A stretch of DNA of 54,407 nt from a virus (IMGVR_UViG_3300032327_000339:1-54407), one strand, 5' to 3'; counted from the stretch's first letter, positions 18,292 to 50,074 are shown. Numbers and translations are program-made. Notes: generated by a model from the sequence alone, not told the origin.

Positions 18292-18294
18292 CTA

Positions 18295-35388: not shown

Positions 35389-35400
35389 AGGGAAATCCTA

Positions 35401-35592
35401 TCAGTTTTGGGGGGTATTGTCAATAGTAATTGGGGAAGGTGCATAAAAAGCTTCATTAAAGGTATCTACAACAACCTGACACATATCATCATATACCCAC
35501 TGTCTATCTATATCTAGGAACTGTGACTGAACAGTATCCATATAACTAATTAGATTCTCTTGTAGTTGTTCTTTAAGTTCAATTAGATTCAT
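35401..35592 (-). CDS. hypothetical protein
   Basis: ORF track, coupled. Confidence 0.65.
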   Translation of the reverse strand: MNLIELKEQLQENLISYMDTVQSQFLDIDRQWVYDDMCQVVVDTFNEAFYAPSPITIDNTPQN

Positions 35593-35762
35593 TATAACTT
35601 CTTCTTTCCAATAGTTACCTGTGGATAAACATTGTAGAACTGCTCTACAAACTTAAGGGCGGTATCCCAATATTGTAATTCAATACCTGTAGCATTATGC
35701 ATTTCAACTAGGTCATCTGCTAGTTGTTCTAATAGTTCTGATTCATATAACTTAAGCGTCAT
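35592..35762 (-). CDS. hypothetical protein
   Basis: Start MTLKLY. Confidence 0.6.
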   Translation of the reverse strand: MTLKLYESELLEQLADDLVEMHNATGIELQYWDTALKFVEQFYNVYPQVTIGKKKL

Positions 35763-35937
35763 CTTCCACTCCACTATCTTCTGGGTAATGTGTAATCTCT
35801 GTTACATCGATTGAATAAACTTCACCGAACATTGGGTACTCTTCCCAATTCCAGCCTTCCTGCTCTGCCTCTTCACGGCTGTCGGCTTCTACTTCATACA
35901 TAAAATTAACAGTTACTTCTACATCATAACTAGGCAA
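35752..35937 (-). CDS. small acidic protein, DpnD/PcfM-like pattern
   Basis: YDVEVT...EVEADSREEAE. Confidence 0.65.
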   Translation of the reverse strand: MPSYDVEVTVNFMYEVEADSREEAEQEGWNWEEYPMFGEVYSIDVTEITHYPEDSGVEDDA

Positions 35938-36151
35938 AATCTATCTCAACTCCTTGTGATTGGTAATCTACATTCTGTTCATCGTGGTCTACTGTATGAC
36001 CTTTTGCCTCAAAGTAGTCAAACATATCTTCATAGTCTATCGCTTCATCGGGGTCATTGTCAATAGTAAATGCTTCATATTCTTCATCAGTAATCTGAAT
36101 AGTAAATGTATGTTCAGATAATACTTCATATGTCTTAGTTAGAATTGGCAT
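35930..36151 (-). CDS. small acidic protein
   Basis: Start MPILTKTY after RBS GAGGAG. Confidence 0.65.
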   Translation of the reverse strand: MPILTKTYEVLSEHTFTIQITDEEYEAFTIDNDPDEAIDYEDMFDYFEAKGHTVDHDEQNVDYQSQGVEIDFA

Positions 36152-36311
36152 TTGATAACTCCTCAATATCATTTGAATCAAATTGACGACCATCTTCATC
36201 TTCAATAACGTGATAGTCTACGTCCCATTGGTTATCACAATACATTTGTTCTGCTTCTTGTAGGGTATCTGCTGTAATATATCCATAAACAATTACCTGG
36301 TAGTCTGGCAT
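36135..36311 (-). CDS. small acidic protein, DpnD/PcfM-like pattern (not in ORF track)
   Basis: MPDYQVIVYGYITADTLQEAEQ..., RBS AAGGAG, downstream of a module promoter. Confidence 0.7.
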   Translation of the reverse strand: MPDYQVIVYGYITADTLQEAEQMYCDNQWDVDYHVIEDEDGRQFDSNDIEELSNANSN

Positions 36312-36492
36312 ATTTCTCCTTGTTTGGTTGATACCTGTATCCTATCACAGACCACTGACATTTTCAATACTTTTTTCCGTGAATTTTTAACCTCTTCGTA
36401 AATAGGTACTTTTAAGGGTCGACCTAGATTTCCGTGAATTTTTTGATCCTTCGTAAATAGGCAGCTTTAGGGGTCGACCCCCAAGGGCAAAG

Positions 36493-36514
36493 AAAAAGCC
36501 CACCGAAGTGGGCT
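36493..36514 (-). terminator. intrinsic terminator
   Basis: On -: AGCCCAC-TTCG-GTGGGCT followed by TTTTCTTT. Confidence 0.8.
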
Positions 36515-36519
36515 AATCC

Positions 36520-36684
36520 TTACTTAACGATTTCGTAGGGGAACTCTCGTTCTCCGCTGTTAAGTTGTCGCTTGCTTGCATTATCTACAAACTTGCCATT
36601 CTGGTCTCGCACAACCGCACGTTCGGACTGTCCAAATCGTGTGTTCCACATTTCCTTGTGAATGAATAGTTCTTTCTTTGCCAT
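36520..36684 (-). CDS. hypothetical protein (not in ORF track)
   Basis: MAKKELFIHKEMWNTRFGQSERAVVRDQNGKF..., RBS AAAGGAG. Confidence 0.7.
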   Translation of the reverse strand: MAKKELFIHKEMWNTRFGQSERAVVRDQNGKFVDNASKRQLNSGEREFPYEIVK

Positions 36685-36767
36685 TTGTTTCTCCTTTGTT
36701 AGAAAATAGAAGGGTTTTTGGTTATGTGGTTATCCCTTGCCACATCTTTTCTACCTACCCGCAGAAC

Positions 36768-37208
36768 CTAGCCCTCATTACAATAGACTACAAATGTCTC
36801 GTAGTCTGTGACTTCGTAGTCAGAGTTTTCACTTGATACATCAAATGAGAAATCGCTACCGTCTACACTATCGGCTTCAATGCCAATCGGTAGAGTCATT
36901 GTAACTGAGAAAGTTACATTCACATCAACGACTACTTCGTTGGTGAGTTCAATGCCAAGCAAACGAGCAATCTCATCTGCGTGTTCGCCAAGTTCCTCAT
37001 AGTTTTCTACAAGGTATTCACGAACATTCTCAATGCTTGCATCTAGTTTGGCAATACGCTTTGTGCGTAGTGTGTCATTGTTCTTTAGTGATGTTACCTC
37101 GTGTGCTTCTAGCACAAGCGGTGTCACGCCTGAATAAACAGGCTGGTGAACATTCACGACAACTTTAGCGTATGGGTCATAAGTTACTTCTGGTGTTGTT
37201 TCGTTCAT
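36768..37208 (-). CDS. acidic hypothetical protein
   Basis: ORF track, RBS AGGAG. Confidence 0.75.
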   Translation of the reverse strand: MNETTPEVTYDPYAKVVVNVHQPVYSGVTPLVLEAHEVTSLKNNDTLRTKRIAKLDASIENVREYLVENYEELGEHADEIARLLGIELTNEVVVDVNVTFSVTMTLPIGIEADSVDGSDFSFDVSSENSDYEVTDYETFVVYCNEG

Positions 37209-37209
37209 T

Positions 37210-37899
37210 TTATTCTCCTGATTGGGTAGTGGTTGATAGTTCTAATTCTAGCGTATCTTCATCTGGATTGTCAAGACAGTTTCCAGATTCTGCCCAACCA
37301 CATTGTTCACAAGGAATGTCTAGTTCCTCAAAATCTGCGTGTGTTGGATTGTCAATGTATCGGTCTTTCACAAGTTCACCATTAGAATAAACTAAGATAC
37401 CTGCAAAGAAATTGGCTTCCTCTGTAATCTCATAACTAAAATCAAGATTAGGGAAACGCTTTGCGATTGCGTCATAGGCTTCTACGGCTGGCGACCAAGC
37501 GGTTTGGAAGTACCAGTGGAAATAATAGTCACCGTCATTGTTTTGGTCAAAGTCACCAATCTCATCTCGGTGTATGGTAATGTCCCACTTAGTACCCCAG
37601 TTACGAACATTCCAATGATACCAGTCCATACCTGTCGCAAGTTCTTCCTGAAAGTGTTCCATAGTAGACATACCCTCTGGGGTAGGCTTTACTGTGGAAG
37701 TTCCAAAGTATGCGTCAAGGTCGGTTGGTGTGATGAAGTTCCAGAAAACACCCTTAGTGTTCTCATCTACAACAACTTCCTTTGACTTCCAATCTTCCCA
37801 ATGAGAAGTGTGTGGCTGGTCACAGAAGTCAATAAATTCATTTAGTTCTGCTTCGGTCTTTGCAGATACGATTACAGAATTACTTGTCCAGTTTGGCAT
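37210..37899 (-). CDS. DUF1281/YubB ferredoxin-like family protein
   Basis: MPNWxxN...WYHWNVRNWGTKWD...FQTAWSP. Confidence 0.8.
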   Translation of the reverse strand: MPNWTSNSVIVSAKTEAELNEFIDFCDQPHTSHWEDWKSKEVVVDENTKGVFWNFITPTDLDAYFGTSTVKPTPEGMSTMEHFQEELATGMDWYHWNVRNWGTKWDITIHRDEIGDFDQNNDGDYYFHWYFQTAWSPAVEAYDAIAKRFPNLDFSYEITEEANFFAGILVYSNGELVKDRYIDNPTHADFEELDIPCEQCGWAESGNCLDNPDEDTLELELSTTTQSGE

Positions 37900-37960
37900 T
37901 TGTTTTCCTTTTGGTAGGTTATGGAAATAGTCTATCAGTTATGGGCGGTAAAGTACAGAG

Positions 37961-38158
37961 TTATTCTGAACTATTTTCATCTAGGTTTACAACATCTAAG
38001 TCAAAACCATTCCAGTCATAGGTAGCACCTTTGATTAGTGGTAGACCGTCCCATTCATTACGAATGTGTGACTCGTCAATTTCATCTGCTTCACCATCAA
38101 AGTCAATCACGATAGAGTCAGATACATAAGCGGTGAAGTTGATTTCGTACTGTGGCAT
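37961..38158 (-). CDS. small acidic protein
   Basis: Start MPQYEINF after RBS GAAAAGGA. Confidence 0.7.
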   Translation of the reverse strand: MPQYEINFTAYVSDSIVIDFDGEADEIDESHIRNEWDGLPLIKGATYDWNGFDLDVVNLDENSSE

Positions 38159-38290
38159 TTTATTTCCTTTTCGGTAGGTTGATAAATCAAGCATACCAGA
38201 TAGCACTGACATTTTCAATAGTTTTTTCCGTGTTTTTTTTGAAGCCCTCGTAAATAGAAGCTTTGGGGGTCGACCCCCAGGATCCAAACG

Positions 38291-38363
38291 TACCCCCAGT
38301 AGGACTTGAACCTACGACCCACAGATTAAAAGTCTGTTGTTCTACCATCTGAACTATGGAGGC
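38291..38363 (-). tRNA. tRNA-Lys (TTT)
   Basis: Reverse complement GCCTCCA...ACAGA-CTTTTAA-TCTGT...GGTTCAAGTCC...TGGGGGT-A. Confidence 0.92.
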
Positions 38364-38383
38364 TTGCCCCGAAGGGCAGAGGA

Positions 38384-39376
38384 TTAAACCCCTGCCACTT
38401 CGTTTACGATTGACAACAGACGATTTTTCTCTGCGTTTACAACAGGGTCGAAACCTGCTGTACCCATTAGCAACGACTCATCATTACCACGAGAAGTTCT
38501 GAACCAGTCAATGCGTTCTGTGAGTGCATTGTAAGCACCCCAAGCATTTCCTGCAATCATTCCATTGGTGTCACCACCATAGATTTCATCAAGCAGTTCA
38601 ATTTTATTTTCCCACTTAGTGAAAGCACCTTTTTTATCTGACTCTGGCTTAGGGTATGCCAAGTCTACAATCTCATTGAACTGAACCTTAGTTAGTTCTG
38701 TTTCAATCATAGTCTGTGCAAGTTTGTCAAACTCATCAAGGTAAGCATTGGCAAGACCAAGAGCCTCACGAGCCTGTGCAACTCTACCGTCAATAGACTG
38801 TGTGTGTCGCAACTTGAATGAGTGCTTTGCACCCTTACGGAATACTGCGGTGTGAGTATTCATACAGGTCAAACGAATTGGTGTAACGGTTGCCTGAACA
38901 GCACTAGAACCATCGTGGCTAGTAGAGATTGCAAGATAGTTCTTTACAACATCACGAACACCATTTGGGTCAAGGATTGTTTCACGCTCTAGTGCTAATG
39001 CACCGAACACGACACGACCATTCTTTAGTGAACCAGCAACTTCCCAACGCCCACCGTCAAGCAGGTTGTCACCAAAAGCAAACAATTCCTCATTCTGCAA
39101 GGTCTTGTAACGCTGTCCAACAACAGACAAAACATCTGGGTGATTATCGGCAGGGTGGTCACGAACAACCATAAAGGCTGGCTTGTCCATAGTGTATTCA
39201 TCAGGCATAGGAATGTCCTCAAGACGAACATTCCAAGAGTTTAGATTTGCTAGTGATAGCATTTCTGATGTAGTAACTTCATCTTGGAAAACAGTTCCAA
39301 GTTGGTGGTAGGCAGGTGTACGCAAGGAAGCATAAGAAGCCTTACCGTTTACGATTTCGATTTGGTCGATAGCCAT
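38384..39376 (-). CDS. DUF932 (TIGR03299 phage/plasmid-like) protein
   Basis: YH.LG...VG.RY..LQN...AGSLKNGR.VF...SHDGS..VQA..TPIR..C.NT...LRHT...WGAYNA.TE. Confidence 0.88.
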   Translation of the reverse strand: MAIDQIEIVNGKASYASLRTPAYHQLGTVFQDEVTTSEMLSLANLNSWNVRLEDIPMPDEYTMDKPAFMVVRDHPADNHPDVLSVVGQRYKTLQNEELFAFGDNLLDGGRWEVAGSLKNGRVVFGALALERETILDPNGVRDVVKNYLAISTSHDGSSAVQATVTPIRLTCMNTHTAVFRKGAKHSFKLRHTQSIDGRVAQAREALGLANAYLDEFDKLAQTMIETELTKVQFNEIVDLAYPKPESDKKGAFTKWENKIELLDEIYGGDTNGMIAGNAWGAYNALTERIDWFRTSRGNDESLLMGTAGFDPVVNAEKNRLLSIVNEVAGV

Positions 39377-39711
39377 TTTTTCTCCATTCGATTGTTTGAT
39401 AAACTAATCATAGCACAAAGGTACGACATTTATCAAGGTTTATTTTAATAAACTTCAGGGAATTTTTAGGCTCTTCGTAAATGAGAGCTAGGGGGGTCGA
39501 CCCCCAGATGGATCACAGCCAACTGCTGAATCCACCTAGTAGGAGTAAGATAAAAACAACAGTTAGGAAATACTTCACGACTCTAACCTCTCAATAAGCA
39601 ATTCATAAAACTTTTGATAATCCTCAGAATCCTCAAATGTATCTGCCCACATTAGTAGTTCATCTTTATGGTGTCGGATTCCATCTTGAAATCCTTCCTC
39701 ATAGTTAGACA

Positions 39712-39912
39712 TTAGAAAGACCCCCCACACATTTCTGCAAGTTTATCAGATACTAAATAGTAGTCTGTACCCATAGCAGGAAATTCGTGAACACTTAGCC
39801 AGTTAAAACCATCATAGATTTCTCTATCCTCAAAATGTTCGGTGGTAGTTCCCCAATCTAATCTAAAATGGTTTTCCTCTGTATCCCACATAACTACATA
39901 GTGATACTGCAT
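39712..39912 (-). CDS. hypothetical protein
   Basis: ORF track, coupled. Confidence 0.65.
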   Translation of the reverse strand: MQYHYVVMWDTEENHFRLDWGTTTEHFEDREIYDGFNWLSVHEFPAMGTDYYLVSDKLAEMCGGSF

Positions 39913-40079
39913 TACTCTACTTCCAATCCATAAATGTCATACTCAAAATGCTGACTTACTATTTTCAAGTCGTCTGCCATAAGTTCCTCAAAAATCTTTA
40001 TCGCTTCATCTTGTGTATCGGCTTCCACAATGTCCTCAAACTCGGTTACTCGTTTAGATGAAAAATAATAATTAGGCAT
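39912..40079 (-). CDS. small acidic protein, DpnD/PcfM-like pattern (not in ORF track)
   Basis: MPNYYFSSKRVTEFEDIVEADTQDEAIKIF..., RBS GAGGA. Confidence 0.65.
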   Translation of the reverse strand: MPNYYFSSKRVTEFEDIVEADTQDEAIKIFEELMADDLKIVSQHFEYDIYGLEVE

Positions 40080-40178
40080 TGTTATCCTCTTTCGTTAGTA
40101 TGCTGTAAAGCAATTTTACCTCATCATCACTTAGTTCGTCAAGCCTTTTCCAGTCAATTACTGATTCCCAATCTATCA

Positions 40179-40352
40179 TTATTCCACATTCCAATCTGAA
40201 CAAATAAACATAACTGCTTCATCAAGGGCAAGCACCAGACTTGCCACCGCTTCATCACTTAGGTCGGATACCATTTCATTAGTTACATAAGAGTTCCACA
40301 ATACTTGTGAGCGGAAAGGATTTCCACACTCTGCACAATTCTCTAAAGCCAT
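40179..40352 (-). CDS. hypothetical protein
   Basis: Start MALENCAEC. Confidence 0.55.
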   Translation of the reverse strand: MALENCAECGNPFRSQVLWNSYVTNEMVSDLSDEAVASLVLALDEAVMFICSDWNVE

Positions 40353-40485
40353 TCTGTTAAATCCCCATCTGCGTAGTATTCTTGTGTGTGTCCGTCTAGT
40401 TCCGCAATAGCGTCCCAAACATCGTCCTCTGTGGGATTCTCAATACCCCATTCTGCTAACAACTTGAAAATTTCTGTACCACCCA

Positions 40486-40821
40486 TTATTCGACTCCCTG
40501 CCAAATCATAAAACTATCAAATGAATAACCGTTTACGGTTTCTTTTACTAGGTCAATCTCTACAACTTCATCAGAAAAAACTGAATCTATTGCTCTAGGG
40601 TCAATAGCAAAAATGCCATAACCTGTTTCATCAAGTAACTCATTCTGAATAAGATGTGAGATAACCATTCGTGTCCAGTAAGATGTGTCACCCTTGCGTG
40701 GCTGTGCGTGTTTGACTGCTTCTGCTAAATCGAATGTCCAACTATCTGCACCCCAATGTGAATAAAGAACTACGGCACTATTAGTTCCATCATTGAATAC
40801 AAAGTTTACTCTTGCACCCAT
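40486..40821 (-). CDS. phage hypothetical protein (MGAR...LYSHWG type)
   Basis: Directly after a module promoter and RBS. Confidence 0.78.
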   Translation of the reverse strand: MGARVNFVFNDGTNSAVVLYSHWGADSWTFDLAEAVKHAQPRKGDTSYWTRMVISHLIQNELLDETGYGIFAIDPRAIDSVFSDEVVEIDLVKETVNGYSFDSFMIWQGVE

Positions 40822-40953
40822 TTATTTTCTCTCTTTCGGTAGGTTGATAACCTTATCCTAGCAGATACCACCGACATTTTCAATAGTTTTTTGTGATTAT
40901 TTTTGCCTTTCGTAAAAGGCAAATCGGGGGGTCGACCCCCGAAGGGATCCTGG

Positions 40954-41154
40954 TTAAGCCCAGTCTAGGTGAATATTTGCACCTGTACCAAACTTAGCCT
41001 GGATAAAACCATTGGCATACCATCGGTGGTTTTCGTTAGTTTCATCAAACATAAACCATAATGAACCTAGGAAATCTTCCCATAGGTAGTCTATGTCCTC
41101 TGAATAAACTGAAAAGTGACCCTCACGGTATTGACGACTAATTGTTGCTCTCAT
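40954..41154 (-). CDS. hypothetical protein
   Basis: ORF track, coupled. Confidence 0.65.
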   Translation of the reverse strand: MRATISRQYREGHFSVYSEDIDYLWEDFLGSLWFMFDETNENHRWYANGFIQAKFGTGANIHLDWA

Positions 41155-41528
41155 TATTCCCCCAATAGTTTCTTTAGTGCATCTGGGTCTGTCCCATTCA
41201 TAGCGTTGCGAATGTGTTCTTGCACACCGTCAAATTCACGAACAAAATAGTCACCGTCCTCATCAGATACACGATAGGTAATGTGGTGGGCGGTATCAAC
41301 ATCTGTGCTGTTGTTGTACATCACATCAGAACCGAAAATCTTACGACCAATAAAATCTATGATGCCCTCGCTAGTAATGTCATACTGACCAAGACCGTAT
41401 TCGTGAGTGTCAAGCATTTCTGAAATAACCTGCTTTACATCATAGGTGTATTCAATGTGGGCGGTGATTAGGTGGTGGGTATTTTCTGTCATTTCTAATT
41501 CCTCAAGGTAGCGTTTAATGTAACTCAT
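41154..41528 (-). CDS. hypothetical protein
   Basis: Leaderless-type start (TAGGGT, 6 nt, ATG). Confidence 0.72.
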   Translation of the reverse strand: MSYIKRYLEELEMTENTHHLITAHIEYTYDVKQVISEMLDTHEYGLGQYDITSEGIIDFIGRKIFGSDVMYNNSTDVDTAHHITYRVSDEDGDYFVREFDGVQEHIRNAMNGTDPDALKKLLGE

Positions 41529-41627
41529 AGGTACACCCTACCATAAACCACCGACATTTTCAATAGTTTTTTCGGTGAATTTTTATGTCCCTCGTAAATG
41601 AGATCTTGGGGGGTCGACCCCCGAAGC

Positions 41628-41704
41628 TGGCGATTCCAACGAGATTCGAACTCGCACTCTCCGCCGTGACAGGGCGGTGCATTAACCAATTATGCTATGG
41701 AACC
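41628..41704 (-). tRNA. tRNA-Asp (GTC)
   Basis: Reverse complement GGTTCCA...CCGCC-CTGTCAC-GGCGG...GTTCGAATC...TGGAATC-GCCA. Confidence 0.93.
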
Positions 41705-41808
41705 AAAATGTGCGGGGCATTTGCAACTACCCCACACACTCGTTGTGTTTCTATGTTTACTCACCATACCTAAACACACAAAGTGTATGGCTACATTTAT
41801 CTTGGATT

Positions 41809-42282
41809 TTACCAAGAAGCCTGATACTCAAAGTAATCAAACTTAGACTTTAGGCAACGGTCAATAACTTTGACTGTGTATTCCAAGTCCTTGAAGTAGT
41901 ATTCATCAAAGTCGGTAGAGCCAAAGAAAAACCCTGCACTTGTTGGAAGCAATTCCTCTGCCAATGAATGGTCTACAAGAACTTGCTCACACAAACTTTT
42001 TAGTTCCTCAAGGTGTTGGGTATTGACATACATAGGCTGGCACTCATCAACACCACCGCCACAGATTTCAACAAACCAATTATGAACACTATTTACTTTT
42101 CGCCAATAGCCCATAGGGAAGTCAATACTAATACCACCAAATGGGGTGTCACCGATTGCATCAGCAACGCCAAACTTTTCAACAAGTTCGTTGAATAGTG
42201 GGTTGTTGTCATCAGCATTGTTTCCGTCATAGTCATAGCGTGAAACATACTCACTTGCTCGTAGGTACATATCTAAGCCCAT
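41809..42282 (-). CDS. phage hypothetical protein (MGLDMYL...YWRK.N..H.WF type)
   Basis: Recurrent phage motif, RBS AAGGAG. Confidence 0.82.
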   Translation of the reverse strand: MGLDMYLRASEYVSRYDYDGNNADDNNPLFNELVEKFGVADAIGDTPFGGISIDFPMGYWRKVNSVHNWFVEICGGGVDECQPMYVNTQHLEELKSLCEQVLVDHSLAEELLPTSAGFFFGSTDFDEYYFKDLEYTVKVIDRCLKSKFDYFEYQASW

Positions 42283-42366
42283 TATGGACTCCTTTTCTTT
42301 TGGTAGGTTTATGAAAATAATCTTATCATAGGGGTCTGACATTTTTGCCAGACCCCCACAATAAAA

Positions 42367-42525
42367 CTACTTTACAGTAGTGTAACGGACAGTTCCGTCA
42401 GACAAAAGCAACTTGACCTTGAAAGAACCTGTTGCGTTCTGCTTGACTTCCTGAACAACACCTGTTGCGTTGCTCTTTTGGGTAGTGATTGTTGAACCAA
42501 TTTCTGGTGCGATTACTTTACTCAT
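42367..42525 (-). CDS. small SH3-like hypothetical protein
   Basis: Start MSKVIAP after RBS AAGGAG. Confidence 0.65.
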   Translation of the reverse strand: MSKVIAPEIGSTITTQKSNATGVVQEVKQNATGSFKVKLLLSDGTVRYTTVK

Positions 42526-42887: not shown

Positions 42888-42979
42888 TCTAGTAGTCCTC
42901 TTTCGCTTCTGGTACGCTTGCACCGCATAGCATACAGGTTGGGTTTTCTCGGTCAGTTACATTTACAATCGGATGAACC

Positions 42980-43186
42980 TTACACATTGGTTAGTTCCTT
43001 TCGTTCGCTTTCGGTGAGTCCACCGTAAGTTCCATACTCAATGTTATTCTTTAGAGCAAAATCTAAACACTCTGACTTTACGACACACGCATTACACAAT
43101 GCCTTTGCCTTTACTACTTTGCTTTTTAGTTCTGAGAAAAAAATCTTGTAGTCTGCTTCTAAGCAGTTAGCGTTATCCTGAAACAT
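42980..43186 (-). CDS. whiB: WhiB-family Fe-S transcription factor (second copy)
   Basis: ANC...FF...AKALCNACVVKSECL..AL....YGTYGGLTESER. Confidence 0.9.
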   Translation of the reverse strand: MFQDNANCLEADYKIFFSELKSKVVKAKALCNACVVKSECLDFALKNNIEYGTYGGLTESERKELTNV

Positions 43187-43237
43187 AGTTTGCCTTTCGA
43201 TAGGTTGATGTAAACATCTTAGCAGATAGGTCTGACA

Positions 43238-43480
43238 TTATTCGTCAAAACTGAACATAGAGTCCCAACAAGTTCCACAAATACCTGTCATAAAACGCTC
43301 ACGAATGGCAGGTGGATAGTTCACAAGAACCGTCTGAACATTTGCACCGTTGTTGTAAAGGAACAAACTTTCGGGGGTAATCTCAATAGACAACACTTCA
43401 TTACAGGTAGGGCAAGGTTGTGATGAAACTACATAGGCGGATAGGTCAGCGGTCTTGATTGGGTTTAGTAGAGTGAACAT
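43238..43480 (-). CDS. Zn-finger hypothetical protein
   Basis: CPTC...RERFMTGICGTCWD. Confidence 0.75.
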   Translation of the reverse strand: MFTLLNPIKTADLSAYVVSSQPCPTCNEVLSIEITPESLFLYNNGANVQTVLVNYPPAIRERFMTGICGTCWDSMFSFDE

Positions 43481-43798
43481 TTAGAACCTTTCGTTAGTTT
43501 GATAAGTTTATCTTAGCATAGAGGTCTGACATTTTTAGTGTTCATAGTGCTTGGTCGGCTGTGTATTTGCGTAGGCAATTTCACACTCATAGCAACCAAT
43601 GTGGTATTCAATTAGGTCGGAATGGTAAAAACCATTTTGGTCAAAATAATCTAGAATCTTTTTTATTGTTTCCATAGGTACACCTTACCACAAGGGTCTG
43701 ACATTTTTGGTACCAAAACACCTTAAATTCCAGGCAATTTTTGGATCTATCGTAATCGGTCAAAGCTATGGGGGTCGACCCCCGAAGGGTGAGGACTG

Positions 43799-44131
43799 CT
43801 AAGAGTCCTCATCTTGGTCAAGCCAAGCATCATCAATGTGGTGTTCATCATAACCGTCACACGCATCAGACTCGCACCAAGCATTTAGGTGGTGCTGTTC
43901 GATAATTGCCCAAGCAGGTGCAACATTAAAGCCCTTGTAAGATACACCCTCTGGCATAGGGATTTCTCGGTCAAAGTCATCTTCCCAATAAGCATCTATT
44001 GCTTCGATGCAAGGCTGTACCATAGACAAGGGTACGGGTGGGTAATGATTACCCTGCAAGTGCCAAGCAAGTTGCTGTTCCATAGTGATTGCTCCGTTTT
44101 CTGCAATTCCAAGTGCTGTGTTGTATCCCAT
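43799..44131 (-). CDS. hypothetical protein
   Basis: HLQGNHYPPVP...HHLNAW, RBS AAAGGA. Confidence 0.75.
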   Translation of the reverse strand: MGYNTALGIAENGAITMEQQLAWHLQGNHYPPVPLSMVQPCIEAIDAYWEDDFDREIPMPEGVSYKGFNVAPAWAIIEQHHLNAWCESDACDGYDEHHIDDAWLDQDEDS

Positions 44132-44279
44132 TAGTATCCCATTCCTTTGTGTTTTGTTTTGCGAGTGTAGGCTTTTTTGTTTTTGTGTGGTTGGGCTGCA
44201 TTACTGGAACGCAGTCCAAGTCGTGCCTGAAGTTGCTCAGGTGTCGCTGGTGTTGCTGTGTATTGTTTCTTTTTCATAG

Positions 44280-44513
44280 TTACACAATACCACATAGGTC
44301 TGACAATTCTTGACTTGCTTCGTCAATAGCGTTTTGTAGTTTCTGACGGATTTGGTTTTTGCCATAACCATACTCTAAGCCATAAGCCATAATGTAACCT
44401 GCTGTAACCCAACCCAAACGGCGGTCTGCTGTTGCAGGGTACTTGATTTTTTCTACCTGATAGGTGATGTTCACTAGTCGCTCTACTAGGTCTGGCATAA
44501 CTGGGTTTGACAT
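44280..44513 (-). CDS. hypothetical protein
   Basis: Start MSNPV after RBS GAAAGGA. Confidence 0.65.
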   Translation of the reverse strand: MSNPVMPDLVERLVNITYQVEKIKYPATADRRLGWVTAGYIMAYGLEYGYGKNQIRQKLQNAIDEASQELSDLCGIV

Positions 44514-44632
44514 TTGCTGTCCTTTCGTTGGGCTGATGTAAACATCATACCACAGGGGTCTGACATTTTCAGGCATTTTTGAAGGTGTGTCGTAATCGGT
44601 TTTTGTGCGGGGGTCGACCCCGAAGGGTGGGA

Positions 44633-44842
44633 CTATGCGTCCCAACCAAACAGACCTGCTTCCATAGCAATGTCTTCACGACCCTCGTATGGGTCTTGTG
44701 GCTCTTCATCTTCATACTCGTATTCATCATCAAAATCTAAGTATGGGTCATAAGCGTCAATGAGGGCGTTGTAGAAATTTTCATTATCTACTTCTTCGTT
44801 CCAGATTTCGGTCATTGTTTCCTGAGTGTAGAACTCGTCCAT
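44633..44842 (-). CDS. extremely acidic small protein
   Basis: Asp/Glu/Tyr-rich (DFDDEYEYEDEE), RBS GGAG. Confidence 0.7.
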   Translation of the reverse strand: MDEFYTQETMTEIWNEEVDNENFYNALIDAYDPYLDFDDEYEYEDEEPQDPYEGREDIAMEAGLFGWDA

Positions 44843-45028
44843 AGTGGACTCCAATCGCTAGGTTGATAAAATTATCATAGCATAAGGGTCTGACATTTTT
44901 CGGTGAATTTTGAAAGTTTCTCTTAATACTTTAGATCTTGGGGGGTCGACCCCTTTCGGGGTCAGGTTATGAACCTGAACACGCACCTAGTATTAGCAGA
45001 ATAATTATTCCCCAGATAAAATAATTCA

Positions 45029-45562
45029 TTATTCCGCAGACCCCCTAAAAATAATCCAGATTAGGGCTTGCGTTGCACGAGGTGTTAGCCCAATTTCTTG
45101 TGCCACATCCACAACGGCTTGCGACATTTCTCGGTATTGTGTTTTGTTTGGTGAATTGGTATCTAGCCCACCTGCATAGCACATCCACACATCTATTGTC
45201 ACCGCATTTTCATCACCTGCGATTGCACGAGCGAACGCATTAGTTTTCAAACCCTTGAGAGCATTGAAACCTAGCACCAAACTATTTTCTGCCATTCGCA
45301 AATTGTTGCCTAGTCCATTAGCCTTGCCAGTGTGTGCGAACTCTAACGCTTGCACTACATTGCGATTCCAACGCTGACGAGGTGAGAATGATGAAACAAC
45401 ACTAGCACCAATTTCTAGTGTTGCATTTATGCCACGAGCATTTAGGATTCGTGCAACATCGTGTGCAACTAATTCTGCATCGGCATACCACTGCACAGCC
45501 AATTCGACTTGGGCAACGGTTGAGGTCTTAGCGATTGCGAGGTAGCGGTTGAAGTAGGTCAT
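45029..45562 (-). CDS. conserved phage protein, possibly HhH/glycosylase-like fold
   Basis: WY..A...SP...W..N...KT.AF...I.G....VTIDVWM...QALIW. Confidence 0.7.
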   Translation of the reverse strand: MTYFNRYLAIAKTSTVAQVELAVQWYADAELVAHDVARILNARGINATLEIGASVVSSFSPRQRWNRNVVQALEFAHTGKANGLGNNLRMAENSLVLGFNALKGLKTNAFARAIAGDENAVTIDVWMCYAGGLDTNSPNKTQYREMSQAVVDVAQEIGLTPRATQALIWIIFRGSAE

Positions 45563-45732
45563 TTTTTCCCCTAACGGTTGATGATGTTATCATCCTAGCA
45601 TAGAGGTCTGACATTTTTTGCATTTTTTTGAAAAAAGTCATTTTTTTCGGTGAATTTAAAAAGCTTCTCTTAATGAATCCTGGATCTAGGGGGGCGACCC
45701 CTTTCGGGGGCGGTGTCAAGCCACCACGCTTA

Positions 45733-45906
45733 TTAGACGAATGGAATTTCTAAGTCACCAAAATCATCAGCAAACATTTCTGGATAGTGGTGTGCGTATT
45801 GCCAAAGAGTCATCACGCCTTTGTATTCATTACAGGCTAGGCAAACTTTCACATCATCACCAACGGTTGATGAACAAAAAATACAGATTAGGGTTTCGGG
45901 TGTCAT
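45733..45906 (-). CDS. Cys-rich micro-protein (not in ORF track)
   Basis: ICIFC...VCLACNEYKGVM, RBS AAGGAG. Confidence 0.65.
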   Translation of the reverse strand: MTPETLICIFCSSTVGDDVKVCLACNEYKGVMTLWQYAHHYPEMFADDFGDLEIPFV

Positions 45907-46103
45907 AGTGTCTCCTTATGTGTTTGACATTTATTTCCTGTACCGTTTGGAATTACTGTGTAGCAAACTACGCAAGCAACCTGAACAGCGTTTGGTGTTG
46001 ATAGTGCTAACTCAAGTTCCACTTTATCTGCGAAACTTATTTGGTCTAGGTTTTTCCAACCTGCACCATTTTCATCTGCACTAAAAATTTCTATGTATCC
46101 CAT
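45903..46103 (-). CDS. hypothetical protein
   Basis: MGYIEIF...GAGW, CVVC...CQTH. Confidence 0.7.
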   Translation of the reverse strand: MGYIEIFSADENGAGWKNLDQISFADKVELELALSTPNAVQVACVVCYTVIPNGTGNKCQTHKETL

Positions 46104-46117
46104 TTTGGAATTCCTTT

Positions 46118-46318
46118 CTAGTATTCGGATAGGTCTATTGTGGTGTAGCGTGGTGTGCGTGTAACTGTGTTATTCCAATTTACAGTTAGCACCTCGCCAC
46201 CGACAACAATGCCATACCATTTATCTTTTACGGTGTGAATGTTGCTGATTAGCACATCTGACTTTTGGGTGACGATAGAGCCACCGATTAGCAAGTTCTT
46301 TAGTTTATCAAAATCCAT
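46118..46318 (-). CDS. hypothetical protein
   Basis: Start MDFDKL after RBS GGAG. Confidence 0.65.
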   Translation of the reverse strand: MDFDKLKNLLIGGSIVTQKSDVLISNIHTVKDKWYGIVVGGEVLTVNWNNTVTRTPRYTTIDLSEY

Positions 46319-46626
46319 TTTGTTCTCCATTCGTTGATACCAACATCTTAGCATAAGGGTCTGACATTTTTACCACTTTAGGGCACGTTTCATAGAAACT
46401 TTATGAATCCAACATTTGGCACACATAGCACCTTTGCCAGCCTTTTGGCAGTCTTTGCAGTTAGTCATTTCTGACCCCTTTCGTTTTGCTTACTCTGTAA
46501 GCATAGCAGTCAGGTCTGACATTTTTGGTATCAACACACCTTTTTTATGTGAACATTAGGTGAACAATAACTCACAAGTTATCCACAGGTGGGGTCGACC
46601 CCCTTGGGGTCTTGGTGTCAAGGATG

Positions 46627-46806
46627 TTAAAAGGGTGTGTCCATTTCAAATGCCTCATCCCAACAGCCAGCATCTTCACGCATCTGGTCATAGAAAAAAT
46701 CGGGGTCACACATAGGACACATAAGCATTTCGCACTCGCAAGCAACATCCATCCAATCAGGGGTAGAGGTCTTGAAAGCGGTTGGGGCAGAAGTATCAAA
46801 AGACAT
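46627..46806 (-). CDS. acidic Cys-rich micro-protein
   Basis: Start MSFDT after GAAAGG, CECEMLMCPMC. Confidence 0.6.
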   Translation of the reverse strand: MSFDTSAPTAFKTSTPDWMDVACECEMLMCPMCDPDFFYDQMREDAGCWDEAFEMDTPF

Positions 46807-46933
46807 TTTTGACCTTTCGGGTTGGCAATAAAAACATACTAGCATACAGGTCTGACATTTTTGGTAACGACACGCTGGATCTTTGGGGTCGACCCCTCGC
46901 ACCCACCTTTTCAGGTGGGGCGGTGGTCATTAT

Positions 46934-47098
46934 TTATCTTGTAGCCTTTTCAAAAACTTCACGATTGAAATTTGGGTTATCGTTTTCAAACATTTCTGAA
47001 AACTCATCAACAAGCATTTTGAATGCATCAGCGTTCAAGGCGTGTTGAAACATAAAAAGAATTTCTGCGGTTGCTACATAGTCTTTGCGTGTCATCAT
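46934..47098 (-). CDS. hypothetical protein, MTRKDY...DNPNF type (not in ORF track)
   Basis: MMTRKDYVATAEIL...FENDNPNFNREVFEKA. Confidence 0.7.
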   Translation of the reverse strand: MMTRKDYVATAEILFMFQHALNADAFKMLVDEFSEMFENDNPNFNREVFEKATR

Positions 47099-47214
47099 TA
47101 TTTTTTCACCGTTGCCTTTGCGATAGTTTGAATTTTCTTTGCGTTGTCTTTGCGTTCTTGTTCACGCTGTTCTTGCACTAGTGCTTTGAATTCATCAAGT
47201 TTCATTTTGTCCCC

Positions 47215-47397
47215 TTAGTTTTTTTCATCTAGTTTAGAAATAAATAATGCAATTCGCAAAACTGTATCTGCTTGCGACCACATAGCAGAACCACGCATAG
47301 CCTCTGCACAATCTGGGTGTGAACCCTTGCACTCGCAAGTGTAAGCGAATGGCATAAAGCGGTCTTGGATTAGTTGAGATAATTCTGAGTTTTTCAT
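47215..47397 (-). CDS. hypothetical protein
   Basis: Start MKNSEL after RBS AAAGGA. Confidence 0.6.
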   Translation of the reverse strand: MKNSELSQLIQDRFMPFAYTCECKGSHPDCAEAMRGSAMWSQADTVLRIALFISKLDEKN

Positions 47398-47452
47398 TTT
47401 CTGTCCTTTGTTTGTTGTTGATAAATCTAGCATAGCATAAGGGTCTGACATT

Positions 47453-47581
47453 TTATGAGAATTCGTATTCGTCAGGTTCGCAAATAATGCAATAGCCTGT
47501 CGTTTCCCAATCGGTAAGTTTGTCACCACACTCAACGCACTTAGTAGTAGTGATGTTCTCAACATAGGTTAGTTCTGTCAT
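47453..47581 (-). CDS. Zn-finger micro-protein, paralog of 49542..49658 (not in ORF track)
   Basis: KCVECGDKLTDWETTGYCIICE. Confidence 0.7.
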   Translation of the reverse strand: MTELTYVENITTTKCVECGDKLTDWETTGYCIICEPDEYEFS

Positions 47582-47873
47582 TTTCTGTCCTTTGCTCGGG
47601 CTTACTCTGTAAGACTAGCATAGGGGTCTGACATTTTTGGGATATTTTGGGGTGTGTCGGGAAAAATCTTTTTTATTTTTTATCGGTGTGTCGACTTGAC
47701 AGCTTTGGATCAGGGGGGTCGACCCCCCGAAGGGTCGGTTTGTCAATCATTGTCATCACCTGCAGAAATAATCATCATCATAAGCAAATAAAAAAATGTT
47801 AGACTAAGCAATCCAAGAATTGCTAGGAATGCATTATCGCTATCAGATAGCCAAGTTGTTATTGCGTTAAACA

Positions 47874-48104
47874 TTAGTTCTCCCATTCATCTAAAGTTTC
47901 ATCAGCCCAAGGTGCTAGGTGATAGTGTTCAGGACAATACCAAGTGATAAAGTCCACATCTTTTGTGCGAACCTTGAATCGGTTAGGGCATTGGTAAGAC
48001 TCTGCACAAAATGCTAGTTCGGTATCCACTAGGCGTGAATTGTCTGGATTATTCTTGACAAACTCTAAGTTATCAAGCACATCATCTGAAACATAAACAG
48101 TCAT
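47874..48104 (-). CDS. hypothetical protein
   Basis: RBS GAAAGGA after a module promoter. Confidence 0.7.
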   Translation of the reverse strand: MTVYVSDDVLDNLEFVKNNPDNSRLVDTELAFCAESYQCPNRFKVRTKDVDFITWYCPEHYHLAPWADETLDEWEN

Positions 48105-48153
48105 TAGTTTTCCTTTCGTTGTAGTTACACTCTAGCACAAGGGTCTGACAATT

Positions 48154-48276
48154 TTATGCACATTCGCAAGTGTCATAACCGCTATCATCTAGATAGTTCC
48201 AATCGTTGCAGGTGTCGCACCACATAACCTCATCAACACTTACGCCAAACTCGTTTGCAAATTCTGTCTTATTCAT
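48154..48276 (-). CDS. Cys-rich micro-protein (not in ORF track)
   Basis: WCDTC...TCECA, RBS AAAGGA. Confidence 0.6.
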   Translation of the reverse strand: MNKTEFANEFGVSVDEVMWCDTCNDWNYLDDSGYDTCECA

Positions 48277-48534
48277 TTTCTATCCTTTGTTTGTTTCTTA
48301 TAGTTATAACTTAGCATAGGGGTCTGACATATTTGGTAGCGACACGCCCAAGCTAGGGGTCGACCCCTTTCGGGGCGGTGTTATGTCTTGCGTGTTATGT
48401 GTAGGTGCAAGCCTTGCCTATCCTGTGACACACTTACACGAATAGATTTTATTAGCGTGATGATTTTGTTTTTCATTTGCCTGACCTCATACCTAGTAGC
48501 AATAAGATGATAACGATTAGCATAACGGTGTGCA

Positions 48535-48804
48535 CTACACATCACCACGCTTTAGTTGATTTAGTTCTGTCGTTATTGTTTTGATTGCGTGTTGTGTATT
48601 TGCATTACTAGCAACGCCCTCAATCACTCGTGCAGTTTCTACTACGATAGTACGAGCAAACGCAACAGCAAACAGTTTCATTCCTAGTGGGATAGCAACG
48701 ATTATGCCAACAATAAACAACACAATGATGACGGCAAAGAATTGGAAGATGTTACCAATCAAGTGCCAAACATCTGCAAGGGGGCTAGTGATAAAGTCCA
48801 ACAT
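48535..48804 (-). CDS. membrane protein
   Basis: Long hydrophobic segment, RBS GAAAGGA. Confidence 0.7.
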   Translation of the reverse strand: MLDFITSPLADVWHLIGNIFQFFAVIIVLFIVGIIVAIPLGMKLFAVAFARTIVVETARVIEGVASNANTQHAIKTITTELNQLKRGDV

Positions 48805-48878
48805 AGTTTTCCTTTCGGGTAGGGTACTAGCATAGCATAGGGGTATGACATTTCTGCCATACCCCTAGACATTAGGCA

Positions 48879-49103
48879 CTAGGCAAAATCATCAAAAGGG
48901 TTATCGCTATTCCATACCTTTGGCGGTGTGAACGGAACAACCTTGCGTTGTGCTAGTCCGTCTACGATTACCTTGCGAGTACGCAACACGACAACAATAG
49001 CAACAATGACGGCAAGAACTTTGGTGCTAATGTAGAACTCAAAGGCTGAACCGATACGCAAGTCTACATAGTTGGCGGTTAGGTCAAGGGTTAGTGCATT
49101 CAT
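48879..49103 (-). CDS. membrane protein
   Basis: One TM segment, RBS GAAAGG. Confidence 0.7.
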   Translation of the reverse strand: MNALTLDLTANYVDLRIGSAFEFYISTKVLAVIVAIVVVLRTRKVIVDGLAQRKVVPFTPPKVWNSDNPFDDFA

Positions 49104-49129
49104 TTTATTACCTTTCGTTGTGCTAGTGC

Positions 49130-49172
49130 TTATTTGCTAGGCTCACCCTTGCGGGATTATTTGCTAGGCTCA
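49130..49172. repeat. 16-bp direct repeat TTATTTGCTAGGCTCA flanking a mini hairpin
   Basis: 49130-49145 and 49157-49172 are identical, with spacer CCCTTGCGGGA. Confidence 0.9.
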
Positions 49173-49243
49173 TCACTAACTGCTAATAAGTACACTCTAG
49201 CATAGGGGTCTGACATTTTTGGTAGGTAGGTAGGTGTGTTAGG

Positions 49244-49259
49244 TGTGAGGAACATCACA
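49244..49259. promoter_or_regulatory. CRP/GlxR-type site
   Basis: TGTGA-GGAACA-TCACA between divergent promoters. Confidence 0.5.
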
Positions 49260-49386
49260 TTATCTGTCGGTGTGTCGACTTGACAAGGGCAAGTCGGGGG
49301 GGTCGACCCCCAGATGTTACACAAATGTTACATAGAATAGCGTATTGGTGTCAGGAAATGTCGGTGGGCTATGCTACATTATAACT

Positions 49387-49512
49387 ATGAACACAGATAC
49401 AGATTTGATGAACTACTGCTACTACTGCGATGGGACTATGAACTACTCACATATTGCTTGCGACTGTAACTATGATGTGTGTGATGATTGCCACCCTATG
49501 GGTTGCGAATAA
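49387..49512 (+). CDS. Cys-rich micro-protein (not in ORF track)
   Basis: MNTDTDLMNYCYYCDG...CDC...CDDCHPMGCE, leaderless after a + strand module promoter. Confidence 0.65.
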   Translation: MNTDTDLMNYCYYCDGTMNYSHIACDCNYDVCDDCHPMGCE

Positions 49513-49541
49513 TTGTCAGACCCCTATGATAAGGTGAAACT

Positions 49542-49658
49542 ATGAATGATTATGATGATGTTGAGGTTATTACTAAGAACAAGTGTGTTGAGTGTGGCGA
49601 TAAACTAACGCCATTCGAAACATCACTATGTATTATTTGTGAGGCGGTGAGTGAATAA
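49542..49658 (+). CDS. Zn-finger micro-protein (not in ORF track)
   Basis: KCVECGDKLTPFETSLCIICE, leaderless after a + strand module promoter. Confidence 0.7.
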   Translation: MNDYDDVEVITKNKCVECGDKLTPFETSLCIICEAVSE

Positions 49659-49762
49659 TGGAAACAGCATTTTGTTTTAATTGCGATGACCATTCTGTAT
49701 TTAATTACAGCGATGAGTTAGACGCAATAGTGTGTGTTGTGTGTGAGTGTGAGGGCTACTAA
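49658..49762 (+). CDS. Zn-finger micro-protein (not in ORF track)
   Basis: FCFNC...VCVVCEC, TAATG coupling. Confidence 0.6.
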   Translation: METAFCFNCDDHSVFNYSDELDAIVCVVCECEGY

Positions 49763-50074
49763 GCCCCCACCCCCCCCTATGTGCCTACCCCCTATGCCCT
49801 ATGGCGGTATGAAATAAAAGGATTGGAATGTAGCTAGTATGTGCTCACTATCTGAAAATATAAAAGGATTCAAAAACACCGTATCATACAAAATTAAAAA
49901 TTATTCACATTTTTCCCAAAGTGACCCTAGCTGATCTATAAATGTAAATTTTGTGTAAATTCTTTGTAACATTTTTGTTATATATCTATATTAGATGAAT
50001 GTTTTTTGGTATAATATATGAATGCACTTGCCTTCGGGGGGTGTAAATAAATAACTCGCTTAAAAGGAGCAAAA

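Follow-up and report, generated by a model that had tools for sequence, protein, structure and literature searches.

Why should a virus clear two short words from every gene of one region and keep them in the gaps between those genes? The question is raised by a viral contig of 54,407 nt from a metagenome (IMGVR_UViG_3300032327_000339), here called the window in its full length, to which CheckV assigns a completeness of 51%, i.e. about half of a genome. A 13.2-kb block of the window carries small genes on the minus strand, separated by recurrent regulatory cassettes that are centred on a palindrome. An earlier note had claimed that GATC and AGCT are found in this region only beside the palindromes, had interpreted the region as probably first-entering DNA and had stated that no described system with such a layout was known to its author. 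Our analysis confirmed that the GATC/AGCT pattern is real and far above chance, and revealed that it is one part of a wider loss of palindromic words. Restriction avoidance of the kind known from phage T5, confined to early-exposed DNA and acting on expression units, explains the pattern in a way that we accept with moderate confidence.

Distribution of GATC and AGCT

An automated count returned 134 GATC and 97 AGCT in the window. Between positions 35,500 and 49,800 there are 11 and 8 of them, respectively, exactly where the earlier note had placed them (Table 1), and the first sites beyond these limits are GATC at 34,252 and 49,933 and AGCT at 35,449 and 49,832. For 17 of the 19 sites, one of the 15 centres of GGGTCGACCC is no more than 31 nt away. 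The sites at 45,662 and 45,683 flank a degenerate copy of the palindrome with a one-base deletion (GGGGTCGCCCCCC, 45,689-45,701); when this copy is included, no site is more than 33.5 nt from a centre, with a median distance of 12.5 nt. Random placement, repeated 20,000 times, never brought more than 8 of the 19 sites within 36 nt of a centre.

The genes were compared with a null model in which synonymous codons are shuffled within each gene, which preserves both the protein sequence and the codon usage. The 29 core genes (8481 nt, 300 shuffles) contain neither word, against mean expectations of 22.9 GATC and 25.6 AGCT. When the shoulder of the block (34-36.6 kb) was added, giving 36 genes (10.4 kb, 1000 shuffles), a single copy of each word was present against 30.5±4.2 GATC and 31.7±4.4 AGCT, and no shuffle was as low. 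The shoulder also holds 7 TATA and 6 ACGT. A control set of 21 genes from outside the block (22.6 kb) shows no depletion of GATC (82 against 81.6 expected); AGCT reaches 51 against 102.1. The 10 GATC and 7 AGCT that remain in the core of the block lie in spacers. The absence of both words from the reading frames, their closeness to the palindromes and their return outside the block, all asserted in the earlier note, are thus upheld.

A wider purge of palindromic words

GATC and AGCT, the two words singled out in the earlier note, have company: TATA, ATAT, ACGT, CATG, TTAA, GTAC and TCGA have been purged from the same genes. We ranked all 256 4-mers on the sense strand, which for every gene of the block is the minus strand. 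The nine most depleted words in the 29 core genes (TTAA, GATC, ACGT, ATAT, CATG, AGCT, TATA, GTAC and TCGA) are all palindromes, a hallmark of recognition of DNA in its double-stranded form; AATT stands at rank eleven, and a Markov model ranks the depleted words likewise. TATA and CATG are both absent, where 19.9 and 19.1 copies are expected. In the set of 36 genes, 13 of the 16 palindromic 4-mers were never found at or below the observed count in 1000 shuffles.

The depletion has sharp limits. The sum of six palindromic words is 0-5 per kb at 37,001-49,000 against 27-35 expected, is intermediate at 34-37 kb and becomes normal past 49.8 kb. For the 16 palindromic 4-mers pooled, the ratio of observed to expected counts is 0.39 in the core, 0.67 in the shoulder, 0.81 at 1-33,600 and 0.95 beyond 49,830. 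The stretch from 36,279 to 48,298 is free of TATA, and even the -10 boxes of the cassettes avoid this word (TAGGAT, TATGCT, TATGAT and similar). Palindromic 6-mers follow the same course (72 against 261 expected in the block, 418 against 647 outside), and 17 of the 72 are the GTCGAC of the cassettes. The G+C content is higher in the core of the block than elsewhere (0.417 versus 0.361).

A further set of words is avoided throughout: CCGG, GGCC and CGCG are absent from the 54-kb window, and GCGC (4 copies) and CATG (5 copies) are nearly so. Avoidance is therefore organised in two tiers, one genome-wide and one regional, and the regional tier is sharply bounded to the 13.2-kb block. The first is shared with the genome-wide restriction-site avoidance of phages; what the window adds is the second, resolved to the level of the transcription unit. 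The sharp upstream limit of the block (49,740-49,830, minus strand) is marked by a G-rich tract, GGGGGGGGGTGGGGG, and after it a tract rich in CA; this place may be the boundary of a repeat or an end of the genome.

Structure of the cassettes

The palindrome occurs as GGGGTCGACCCC in 14 copies, as GGGTCGACCC in 15 and as its centre GTCGAC in 18, and all 18 of the last lie between 33,650 and 49,302, with none elsewhere in the window. Sixteen cassette copies were distinguished (Table 1). Read in the sense of transcription, a cassette comprises the end of the upstream gene (often with a hairpin of its own), a C-run and a G-run that are separated by a loop and able to pair, and a hairpin of the form G-run-TCGA-C-run; these are followed by the slot for GATC or AGCT, a TTTACGA box (in about half of the copies), sometimes a second slot, and an A-tract. 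Next comes a conserved promoter, either TTGAAA-17-TAnnnT or of the type AAATGTCAGACC, and after it the ribosome-binding site and start codon of the following gene. The slot is occupied in 11 of the 16 copies, in which GATC or AGCT stands 1-4 nt past the C run, so the two words do share a position, as had been suggested. Three of the 16 copies have neither word and five have only one.

Of four cassettes subjected to RNA folding, three gave the G/C hairpin; in the fourth, at 44,948, the G run pairs with an upstream C run (CCCC-GAAA-GGGG). For one cassette the fold is much more stable than those of shuffles (z = -7.4). Matches of the TTGAAA-17-TAGGAT type sit at the cassettes. A consensus scan of the whole block did not rise above shuffles for either promoters (39 versus 43.8) or terminators (16 versus 11.8), and the assignment of promoters therefore rests on conservation. 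Intrinsic terminators of actinobacteria often lack U tracts. We also considered a second hairpin, with TTTACG in the loop and the 4-mers at the base, as a general component of the cassettes. This candidate was rejected: in 66 cassettes the best contiguous stem had a mean of 3.17 against 2.88±0.12 for re-paired flanks, constrained folds gave -1.60 against -1.23±0.19 kcal/mol, and the structure was strong in only 8 of the 66. It is genuine in a few cassettes (e.g. at 42,660) and not a general component. The terminator scan also drew attention to 42,320-42,367 (minus strand), where a long hairpin spanning the promoter could arise by pairing between the promoter word AAAATGTCAGACCCC and GGGGTCTGGC, which lies upstream of it.

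Table 1. Coordinates of the block, its marker genes and the palindrome copies of its cassettes
Feature	Position	Strand	Remarks
Purged core of the putative early module	36620..49830	-	about 40 small genes, 2 tRNA genes, 15 regulatory cassettes
Shoulder: final operon of the module, no internal cassettes, partly purged	33700..36619	-	ratio 0.67
DUF932 gene, marker for finding relatives	38384..39376	-	Pfam PF06067, E 1.8e-45
WhiB-like regulator gene	42980..43186	-	PHROG 472, E 3.7e-16
tRNA-Lys, between cassettes	38290..38363	-	
tRNA-Asp, between cassettes	41628..41704	-	
Outermost copy (GAGGGTCGACCCC), module end	33648..33657		AGCT 33677 nearby
Palindrome copy	36471..36480		AGCT 36463, GATC 36445; second GGTCGACC at 36417-36424
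Palindrome copy, after tRNA-Lys	38267..38276		GATC 38281 before, AGCT 38259 after (transcription sense)
Palindrome copy, upstream of DUF932 gene	39494..39503		GATC 39511, AGCT 39486
Palindrome copy	40929..40938		GATC 40946 only
Palindrome copy	41611..41620		AGCT 41625 (3' end of tRNA-Asp), GATC 41602
Palindrome copy	42655..42664		GATC 42646 only, within 12-bp stem; partner arm GGTC
Palindrome copy	43772..43781		AGCT 43764, GATC 43744; orthologous L002 cassette in reverse order
Palindrome copy	44611..44620		neither 4-mer
Palindrome copy	44943..44952		GATC 44934 only
Degenerate copy (GGGGTCGCCCCCC), upstream of DUF7178 gene	45689..45701		GATC 45683, AGCT 45662
Palindrome copy	46592..46601		neither 4-mer; DnaA-box word beside, 46579-46587
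Palindrome copy	46886..46895		GATC 46878 only
Palindrome copy	47716..47725		GATC 47708, AGCT 47701; second GTCGAC at 47690
Palindrome copy	48357..48366		AGCT 48351 only
Palindrome copy, first in transcription order	49300..49309		neither 4-mer; second GTCGAC at 49274

Cassettes in uncultured relatives

A nucleotide search of the phage collection found no close relative of the window, and probing viral contigs with the 14-nt palindrome pattern was uninformative (60 matches, mostly unrelated singles). Two sets of relatives were assembled by other routes. The first consists of 18 IMG/VR loci retrieved with the DUF932 protein as the query. The second, found by means of the promoter pattern AATGTCAGACC..T.TGCTA, consists of at least 119 further IMG/VR viral contigs (1.12 Mb, three of them overlapping earlier loci) and supplies 362 promoters with distinct upstream sequence, 358 of which have 260 nt on both sides. 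The occurrence of this pattern in at least 119 viral contigs, the longest of them about 110 kb, indicates that the clade is large and widespread in IMG/VR.

The nearer DUF932 relatives repeat the layout of the cassettes with a hairpin centre that differs from genome to genome: GGTACC in L003, GGGGSACCCC in L012, TGCGCA in L014, GACGTC in G002 and GCTCGGGC in L009, with GGGGCGACCCC (L004 and L007) and GGTCGGCA (L013) present in either orientation. In the complete 113-kb genome G002, all 8 copies of GACGTC fall in the early block. Since the element is specific to each genome and variable in orientation, it looks like the binding site of a genome-specific protein, and not only like an RNA hairpin. 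The order of the modules in the window is permuted relative to L003 and L012, and what precedes orthologous genes varies from a complete cassette to a promoter alone or a cassette of another kind. The cassettes thus appear to mark the places at which relatives gain, lose and shuffle modules.

The split between genes and spacers recurs in these phages. At nine loci GATC has a density of 0.45 per kb in coding and 2.78 per kb in non-coding DNA, and AGCT of 0.36 and 2.44; no other palindrome has such a contrast there, the central elements aside. A GATC or AGCT lies within 16 nt of 67 of 104 G/C hairpin elements, and in the 16-nt flanks of all 104 the two most enriched 4-mers are AGCT (45 copies) and GATC (42), where 2.0 and 2.7, respectively, are expected from the regional background and about 12 from base composition. 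Relative to base-composition expectation, the spacer densities are 0.78 for GATC and 0.68 for AGCT.

A step at the promoter is also visible in the second set. Among the matches listed, the 150 nt upstream of the 362 promoters contain 156 GATC and 135 AGCT, and the segment from +60 to +210 contains 20 and 13. For the 358 promoters of the matches listed that were divided into 20-nt bins, both words stay at 0-6 per bin from the promoter onward, peak at -80 to -61 (38 GATC and 33 AGCT) and range over 8-28 and 3-25 in the other upstream bins. At the 198 interior promoters among the matches listed, GATC falls from 3.3 per kb (-160 to -21) to 0.55 (+60 to +399), and AGCT from 3.4 to 0.34. Of the 12 words tested on the matches listed, only GATC and AGCT, and weakly GGCC, show the step; GTAC, TTAA, ACGT, CATG, TGCA and CTAG are flat across these promoters.

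The GATC/AGCT split is therefore a property of the clade. The wider purge (TATA, ATAT and others) belongs to the sub-lineage of the window, being found in the window and G001 and not in G002: the pooled palindrome ratio in the early block versus elsewhere is 0.42 versus 0.86 in G001 and 0.78 versus 0.82 in G002. Genome-wide gaps were also observed in relatives, namely of ACGT in G001 (100 kb examined), of AGCT in G002, and of both GATC and AGCT in L009 and L014. Methyltransferase domains PF02086 and PF00145 were not found in the records of five relatives, nor was PF01555 in the window and four relatives, both search sets including the complete G002; avoidance rather than self-methylation is thus plausible. 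No HNH nuclease was found in the window and four relatives.

Where a cassette has two sites, it usually has one of each kind. This holds for 50 cassettes at the nine loci, against 2 with two of a kind, and for 50 against 11 among the matches listed from further loci. Both orders of the sites are equally common (25 and 25), and order and slot may be exchanged with the composition kept, as at 43,777 (AGCT..GATC in the window, GATC..AGCT in L002), where the downstream genes are 98% identical. A GATC located in a stem faces a wobble variant (GGTC, GGATT) in the partner arm, which leaves a single GATC. It should be borne in mind that the cassettes are homologous copies in which only some six arrangements can be distinguished. 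The effective sample is therefore small, and much of this bias may be due to founder effects.

The block and its cultured counterparts

The best cultured matches of the window are Streptomyces phages of the BE cluster and phage Coruscant (53% identity for RecA and 50% for the DUF932 protein). Each BE-cluster record contains the DUF932 homologue twice, at a distance of 1.2-2.4 kb from the genome end, which places it in the direct terminal repeat. Such repeats measure 10.7-11.5 kb in BE1 phages (PMC5764925) and 12,244 nt in Coruscant (NC_070782.1), whose long terminal repeat is described in the accessible part of PMC7650747. The window and Coruscant share the order DnaE-RecA-nuclease, right arm, small minus-strand genes, thymidylate synthase (ThyX). 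The repeats of Coruscant and the BE phages resemble the block further in that they carry the DUF932 gene along with 20-25 small genes, all on one strand, and have neighbours in common with it; tRNAs and a tmRNA are encoded elsewhere in the genome. DUF932 homology and gene order together suggest that the block may correspond to the terminal-repeat early module of these phages. The block would then be an early "host-takeover" module, matching the terminal-repeat module of relatives and collapsed to one copy by assembly. A comparable early module of small genes is the host-takeover module of SPO1. The genome of G002 assembles as a circle with a 127-nt overlap.

Judged by core-gene order, tRNAs, tmRNA and WhiB, the window belongs with BE-cluster-like actinophages (relatives of Stanwilliamsviridae). 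Its RNA genes are nine tRNAs and one tmRNA. The tmRNA gene (12,065-12,312, plus strand; predicted tag GATQNALALAA) stands beside seven tRNA genes (11,898-18,292), as in BE-cluster phages. The WhiB-like gene points to an actinobacterial host, and the phage is probably a large lytic one that infects a freshwater actinobacterium. Other genes of the block encode a protein with an Api92-like domain and DUF7178; genes outside it encode a DnaE fragment, RecA, a PD-(D/E)XK nuclease, sugar-modifying enzymes, a collagen-like protein, ThyX and Hsp20. The stretches 5336-11,569, 29,478-31,553 and 52,432-53,391 encode several glycosyltransferases, together with a GDP-mannose 4,6-dehydratase and a fusion of GT25 with an FkbM methyltransferase. 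These sugar enzymes could modify the cell surface or DNA, and DNA modification would bear on the sites tolerated elsewhere in the genome.

The Coruscant repeat (L090, 800-11,250) has 15 cassettes of similar build, with a GC-rich palindrome of its own, TGGCGCCGGGCGCCA, ahead of each promoter, an inverted repeat TAGATG..CATCTA and a -10-like element, GTAAGCTTA, with AGCT inside it. The accessible text of the Coruscant genome papers makes no mention of these cassettes. Unlike the block, this repeat has neither palindrome avoidance nor a cluster of DnaA boxes near its junction.

Proposed restriction avoidance in early-exposed DNA

The module is built of units, and the cassettes separate one unit from the next. 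A unit begins with a conserved promoter of sigma-70-like sequence, continues with a small gene or a few of them, and includes a hairpin. We propose that the genes have been cleared of 4-bp palindromes by synonymous change because the module would meet host restriction enzymes before phage counter-measures act. Selection would cover the expression unit from promoter to terminator and exempt the spacers. A site in a spacer might be harmless if cut, since the unit would still work and a second copy of the module may be present at the other end of the genome; it might be unreachable, if a protein occupies the palindrome or the TTTACGA box; or it might be useful. For the second of these possibilities, the cruciform shielding envisaged in the earlier note is unlikely, as most sites lie outside the palindrome arms, whereas shielding by a bound protein is possible. 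What is added here to the T5 rule is the idea that each expression unit must survive, and not the continuity of an expendable first copy.

The units are virtually empty and the spacers have nearly the density expected from base composition, so the strength of selection per site must change about tenfold within a few nucleotides. Had selection been equal at every site, the spacers would be clear as well, as they are of CATG, ACGT and TATA here, which means that a spacer site is uncut, harmless or wanted. A site that is uncut, or harmless when cut, would fit the known T5 rule. According to the accessible parts of the sources, T5-like phages resist Type I and Type II restriction unless a site lies in the first-step-transfer (FST) repeat (PMC10644984; bioRxiv 10.1101/866236, Davison), and in murciaviruses the leading injected region decides the sensitivity to Type I enzymes (PMC12455610). 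The FST DNA of T5-like phages and the leading region of Autographiviridae, as portrayed there, are like the window in that an early block of small genes is free of sites and the rest may carry them. The sequence pattern expected of FST DNA is present in the window, where GATC is missing from the genes inside the block and at expectation in those outside. In these respects the restriction avoidance in early-exposed DNA invoked by the earlier note fits the data, and the inference of early exposure is plausible by analogy.

The inner border of the block offers a second point of comparison. Six DnaA-box words (five TTATCCACA and one TTATTCACA) lie within 142 nt at 32,957-33,098 (plus strand), just outside the block, and an AT-rich stretch with 18 TATA (33,000-33,600) follows the cluster; in the whole window the pattern TTWTNCACA occurs 19 times against 9.5±3.4 in shuffles. 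Clusters of DnaA boxes are found at the same border in L003/G001, L007, L009, L012, L014 and G002. The injection stop signal of T5 comprises DnaA boxes and repeats at the border (accessible part of bioRxiv 10.1101/866236). The cluster may thus be an injection-stop-like site or, equally, a replication origin. No gene of the A1/A2 type was so named among the 20 early proteins scanned against PHROGs, a scan that included no search aimed at such genes.

Several observations weigh against this explanation. In X2, the one public run with good coverage, contig depths are 58-78 inside the block and 51-64 beside it, without the two-fold step expected of a repeat, although depths of this kind are not comparable with one another. 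The Coruscant repeat is unpurged (1.06 versus 0.91 outside) and the T5 repeat only mildly purged (0.84 versus 0.97), and the analogy does not predict the extreme found in the window; the extreme purge is hence a feature of this freshwater clade and not one that long terminal repeats have in general. If the T5 rule applied strictly, the GATC and AGCT sites retained in the core should still kill the phage in any host that possesses the corresponding enzyme. TATA, ATAT, CATG and ACGT have been purged from the spacers too, so that spacers are not generally exempt in this genome. Lastly, the peak at -80 to -61 and the one-of-each rule hint at a positive role of the sites, for which restriction avoidance has no need.

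Alternative explanations

The one-of-each rule is left unexplained by restriction avoidance and favours a positive role based on recognition by two enzymes, through methylation or cutting. GATC is a target site of the Dam/MboI type, AGCT of the AluI type and GTCGAC of the SalI type. It is conceivable, though we consider it distinctly doubtful, that the spacer sites have been positively selected as recognition points for two DNA enzymes. They could be methylation marks read by a factor that binds the TTTACGA box or the hairpin, serving as a timer or as a self/non-self switch on early promoters; or they could be programmed cuts that release promoter-gene-terminator modules with conserved ends, which recombine into relatives and drive the shuffling of modules. 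The counts of one-of-each cassettes, the swaps of order with the composition kept, the first rank of AGCT and GATC in the hairpin flanks and the wobble partner arms, in which one stem copy is kept and the second removed, all speak for such a role, as do the permuted module order and the presence of a RecA gene. The sites are nevertheless dispensable: L009 and L014, whose loci lack both words, and G002, which lacks AGCT genome-wide, have retained cassettes and promoters, and several cassettes of the window itself lack one word or both. Spacer densities are close to base-composition expectation, searches of the phage records revealed neither a methyltransferase of the three Pfam families nor an HNH nuclease, and common descent from some six founder arrangements could mimic a rule. 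The variable distance of the sites from the promoter is ill-suited to a switch acting on RNA polymerase, and as the sites are fixed relative to the hairpin and not the promoter, and wordless relatives keep their cassettes, the methylation switch put forward in the earlier note is weakened. Cut points, also suggested there, are possible, given that the modules are shuffled and the sites point-like and movable.

Other explanations dispense with a function of the sites. The purge of A/T palindromes and the higher G+C of the block might reflect avoidance of spurious -10 elements, or of an Lsr2-type silencer, on DNA that is transcribed at once, with GATC and AGCT a separate matter. Lsr2 is a host silencer that prefers AT-rich DNA. 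The long TATA-free stretch, the avoidance of TATA even by true -10 boxes, the lineage-specific nature of the A/T purge (window and G001, not G002) and the higher G+C of both the block and the Coruscant repeat (0.54 versus 0.47, with an Lsr2-like gene annotated in Coruscant) agree with this idea, which we nonetheless judge unlikely, for it leaves GATC, AGCT, ACGT, CATG, GTAC and TCGA unexplained, and the over-representation of the non-palindromic ATAA, GATA and CATA shows the effect to be specific to palindromes and not to AT-richness. It is very unlikely that the block simply inherited its composition from phages that avoid the words genome-wide, by acquisition or exchange. Loci such as L009 and L014, free of both words throughout, could represent such donors, and modules have been shuffled, gained and lost between relatives; but divergence is alike inside the block (67-85% nucleotide identity) and at 31.7-34.5 kb (77-79%), bulk transfer would not be expected to produce a step at each promoter, and the avoided sets differ (CATG is avoided genome-wide here and regionally in G001, TGCA regionally and in G001 only), which indicates ongoing local selection. 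An endoribonuclease that cuts GAUC and AGCU would account for the absence of the words from transcription units, for their presence between hairpin and promoter, where the non-transcribed spacer would be free of pressure, and for the step at the promoter. Selection at the RNA level gives no reason for palindromes, yet the top depleted words are palindromes and no non-palindromic word comes close; moreover, sites have been retained in transcribed parts, at the acceptor end of tRNA-Asp and in stems upstream of the G/C hairpin. We regard it as the most improbable of these explanations.

Relation to described systems

The closest described counterparts of the cassettes are the PeSL elements of T4-type phages. 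These are terminator/promoter cassettes with a G-run-loop-C-run hairpin, located between small non-essential genes in variable regions (accessible part of PMC4122927), and their sequences vary between phage groups and are linked to modular shuffling (accessible parts of PMC4122927 and PMC2839356). The window resembles them in the combination of a hairpin and a conserved promoter between small genes, in shuffled order and in presence or absence at orthologues. It differs in lineage and promoter, in the extra TTTACGA box and in the genome-specific central 6-bp palindrome, which is absent elsewhere in the genome. The cassettes work like PeSL elements but are not members of that group, the nearest cultured relatives being Streptomyces siphoviruses (Stanwilliamsviridae) and not T4-type myoviruses. 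T5 likewise belongs to a different phage lineage, and the contrast between its FST DNA and the remainder is far smaller than that between the core and the rest of the window.

The words "GATC" and "palindrom" do not occur in the accessible text of PMC4122927, and survival of GATC and AGCT in spacers is not described for T5-like FST DNA in the accessible parts of the sources. A literature search, which was not exhaustive, found no published account of GATC and AGCT confined to the spacers between units, nor of a near-total purge of 4-mer palindromes from an early block. The claim that no described system has this layout thus fails for the cassettes and the regional purge, to which PeSL elements and T5 FST DNA come close, and stands, within the reach of this search, for the confinement of GATC and AGCT to spacers. 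What is new is an extreme variant of regional avoidance combined with terminator-promoter cassettes, together with one new regularity, the one-of-each rule, that is unexplained.

Biological implications

The two properties of the sites may be joined in a "cut-here" grammar, which we offer as a speculation with rather little probability: units are free of GATC and AGCT and each spacer has one of each, so that the two commonest 4-base cutters of the hosts would cut only between units. If this were true, the phage could afford to lose, as DNA, the copy of the module that enters first, and the cut units would still express anti-defence genes. The second copy at the far end would restore the genome, and the released units would recombine into co-infecting relatives. 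Restriction would then be an engine of module exchange in a large uncultured clade of freshwater phages.

If restriction avoidance in early-exposed DNA is the correct explanation, palindromic 4-mers compared with synonymous shuffles would mark the first-exposed DNA of a phage and the units needed before its defences, and this statistic would be usable in uncultured phages without experiment. Staged vulnerability of the T5 type would extend to an actinophage-related clade. Words absent genome-wide would correspond to the enzymes that the phage cannot neutralise, and words absent from the early region only to those that it can. The spacer pairs of GATC and AGCT, like the genome-specific 6-bp palindromes that are exclusive to cassettes, would provide handles on early regulation, methylation and module exchange in these phages.

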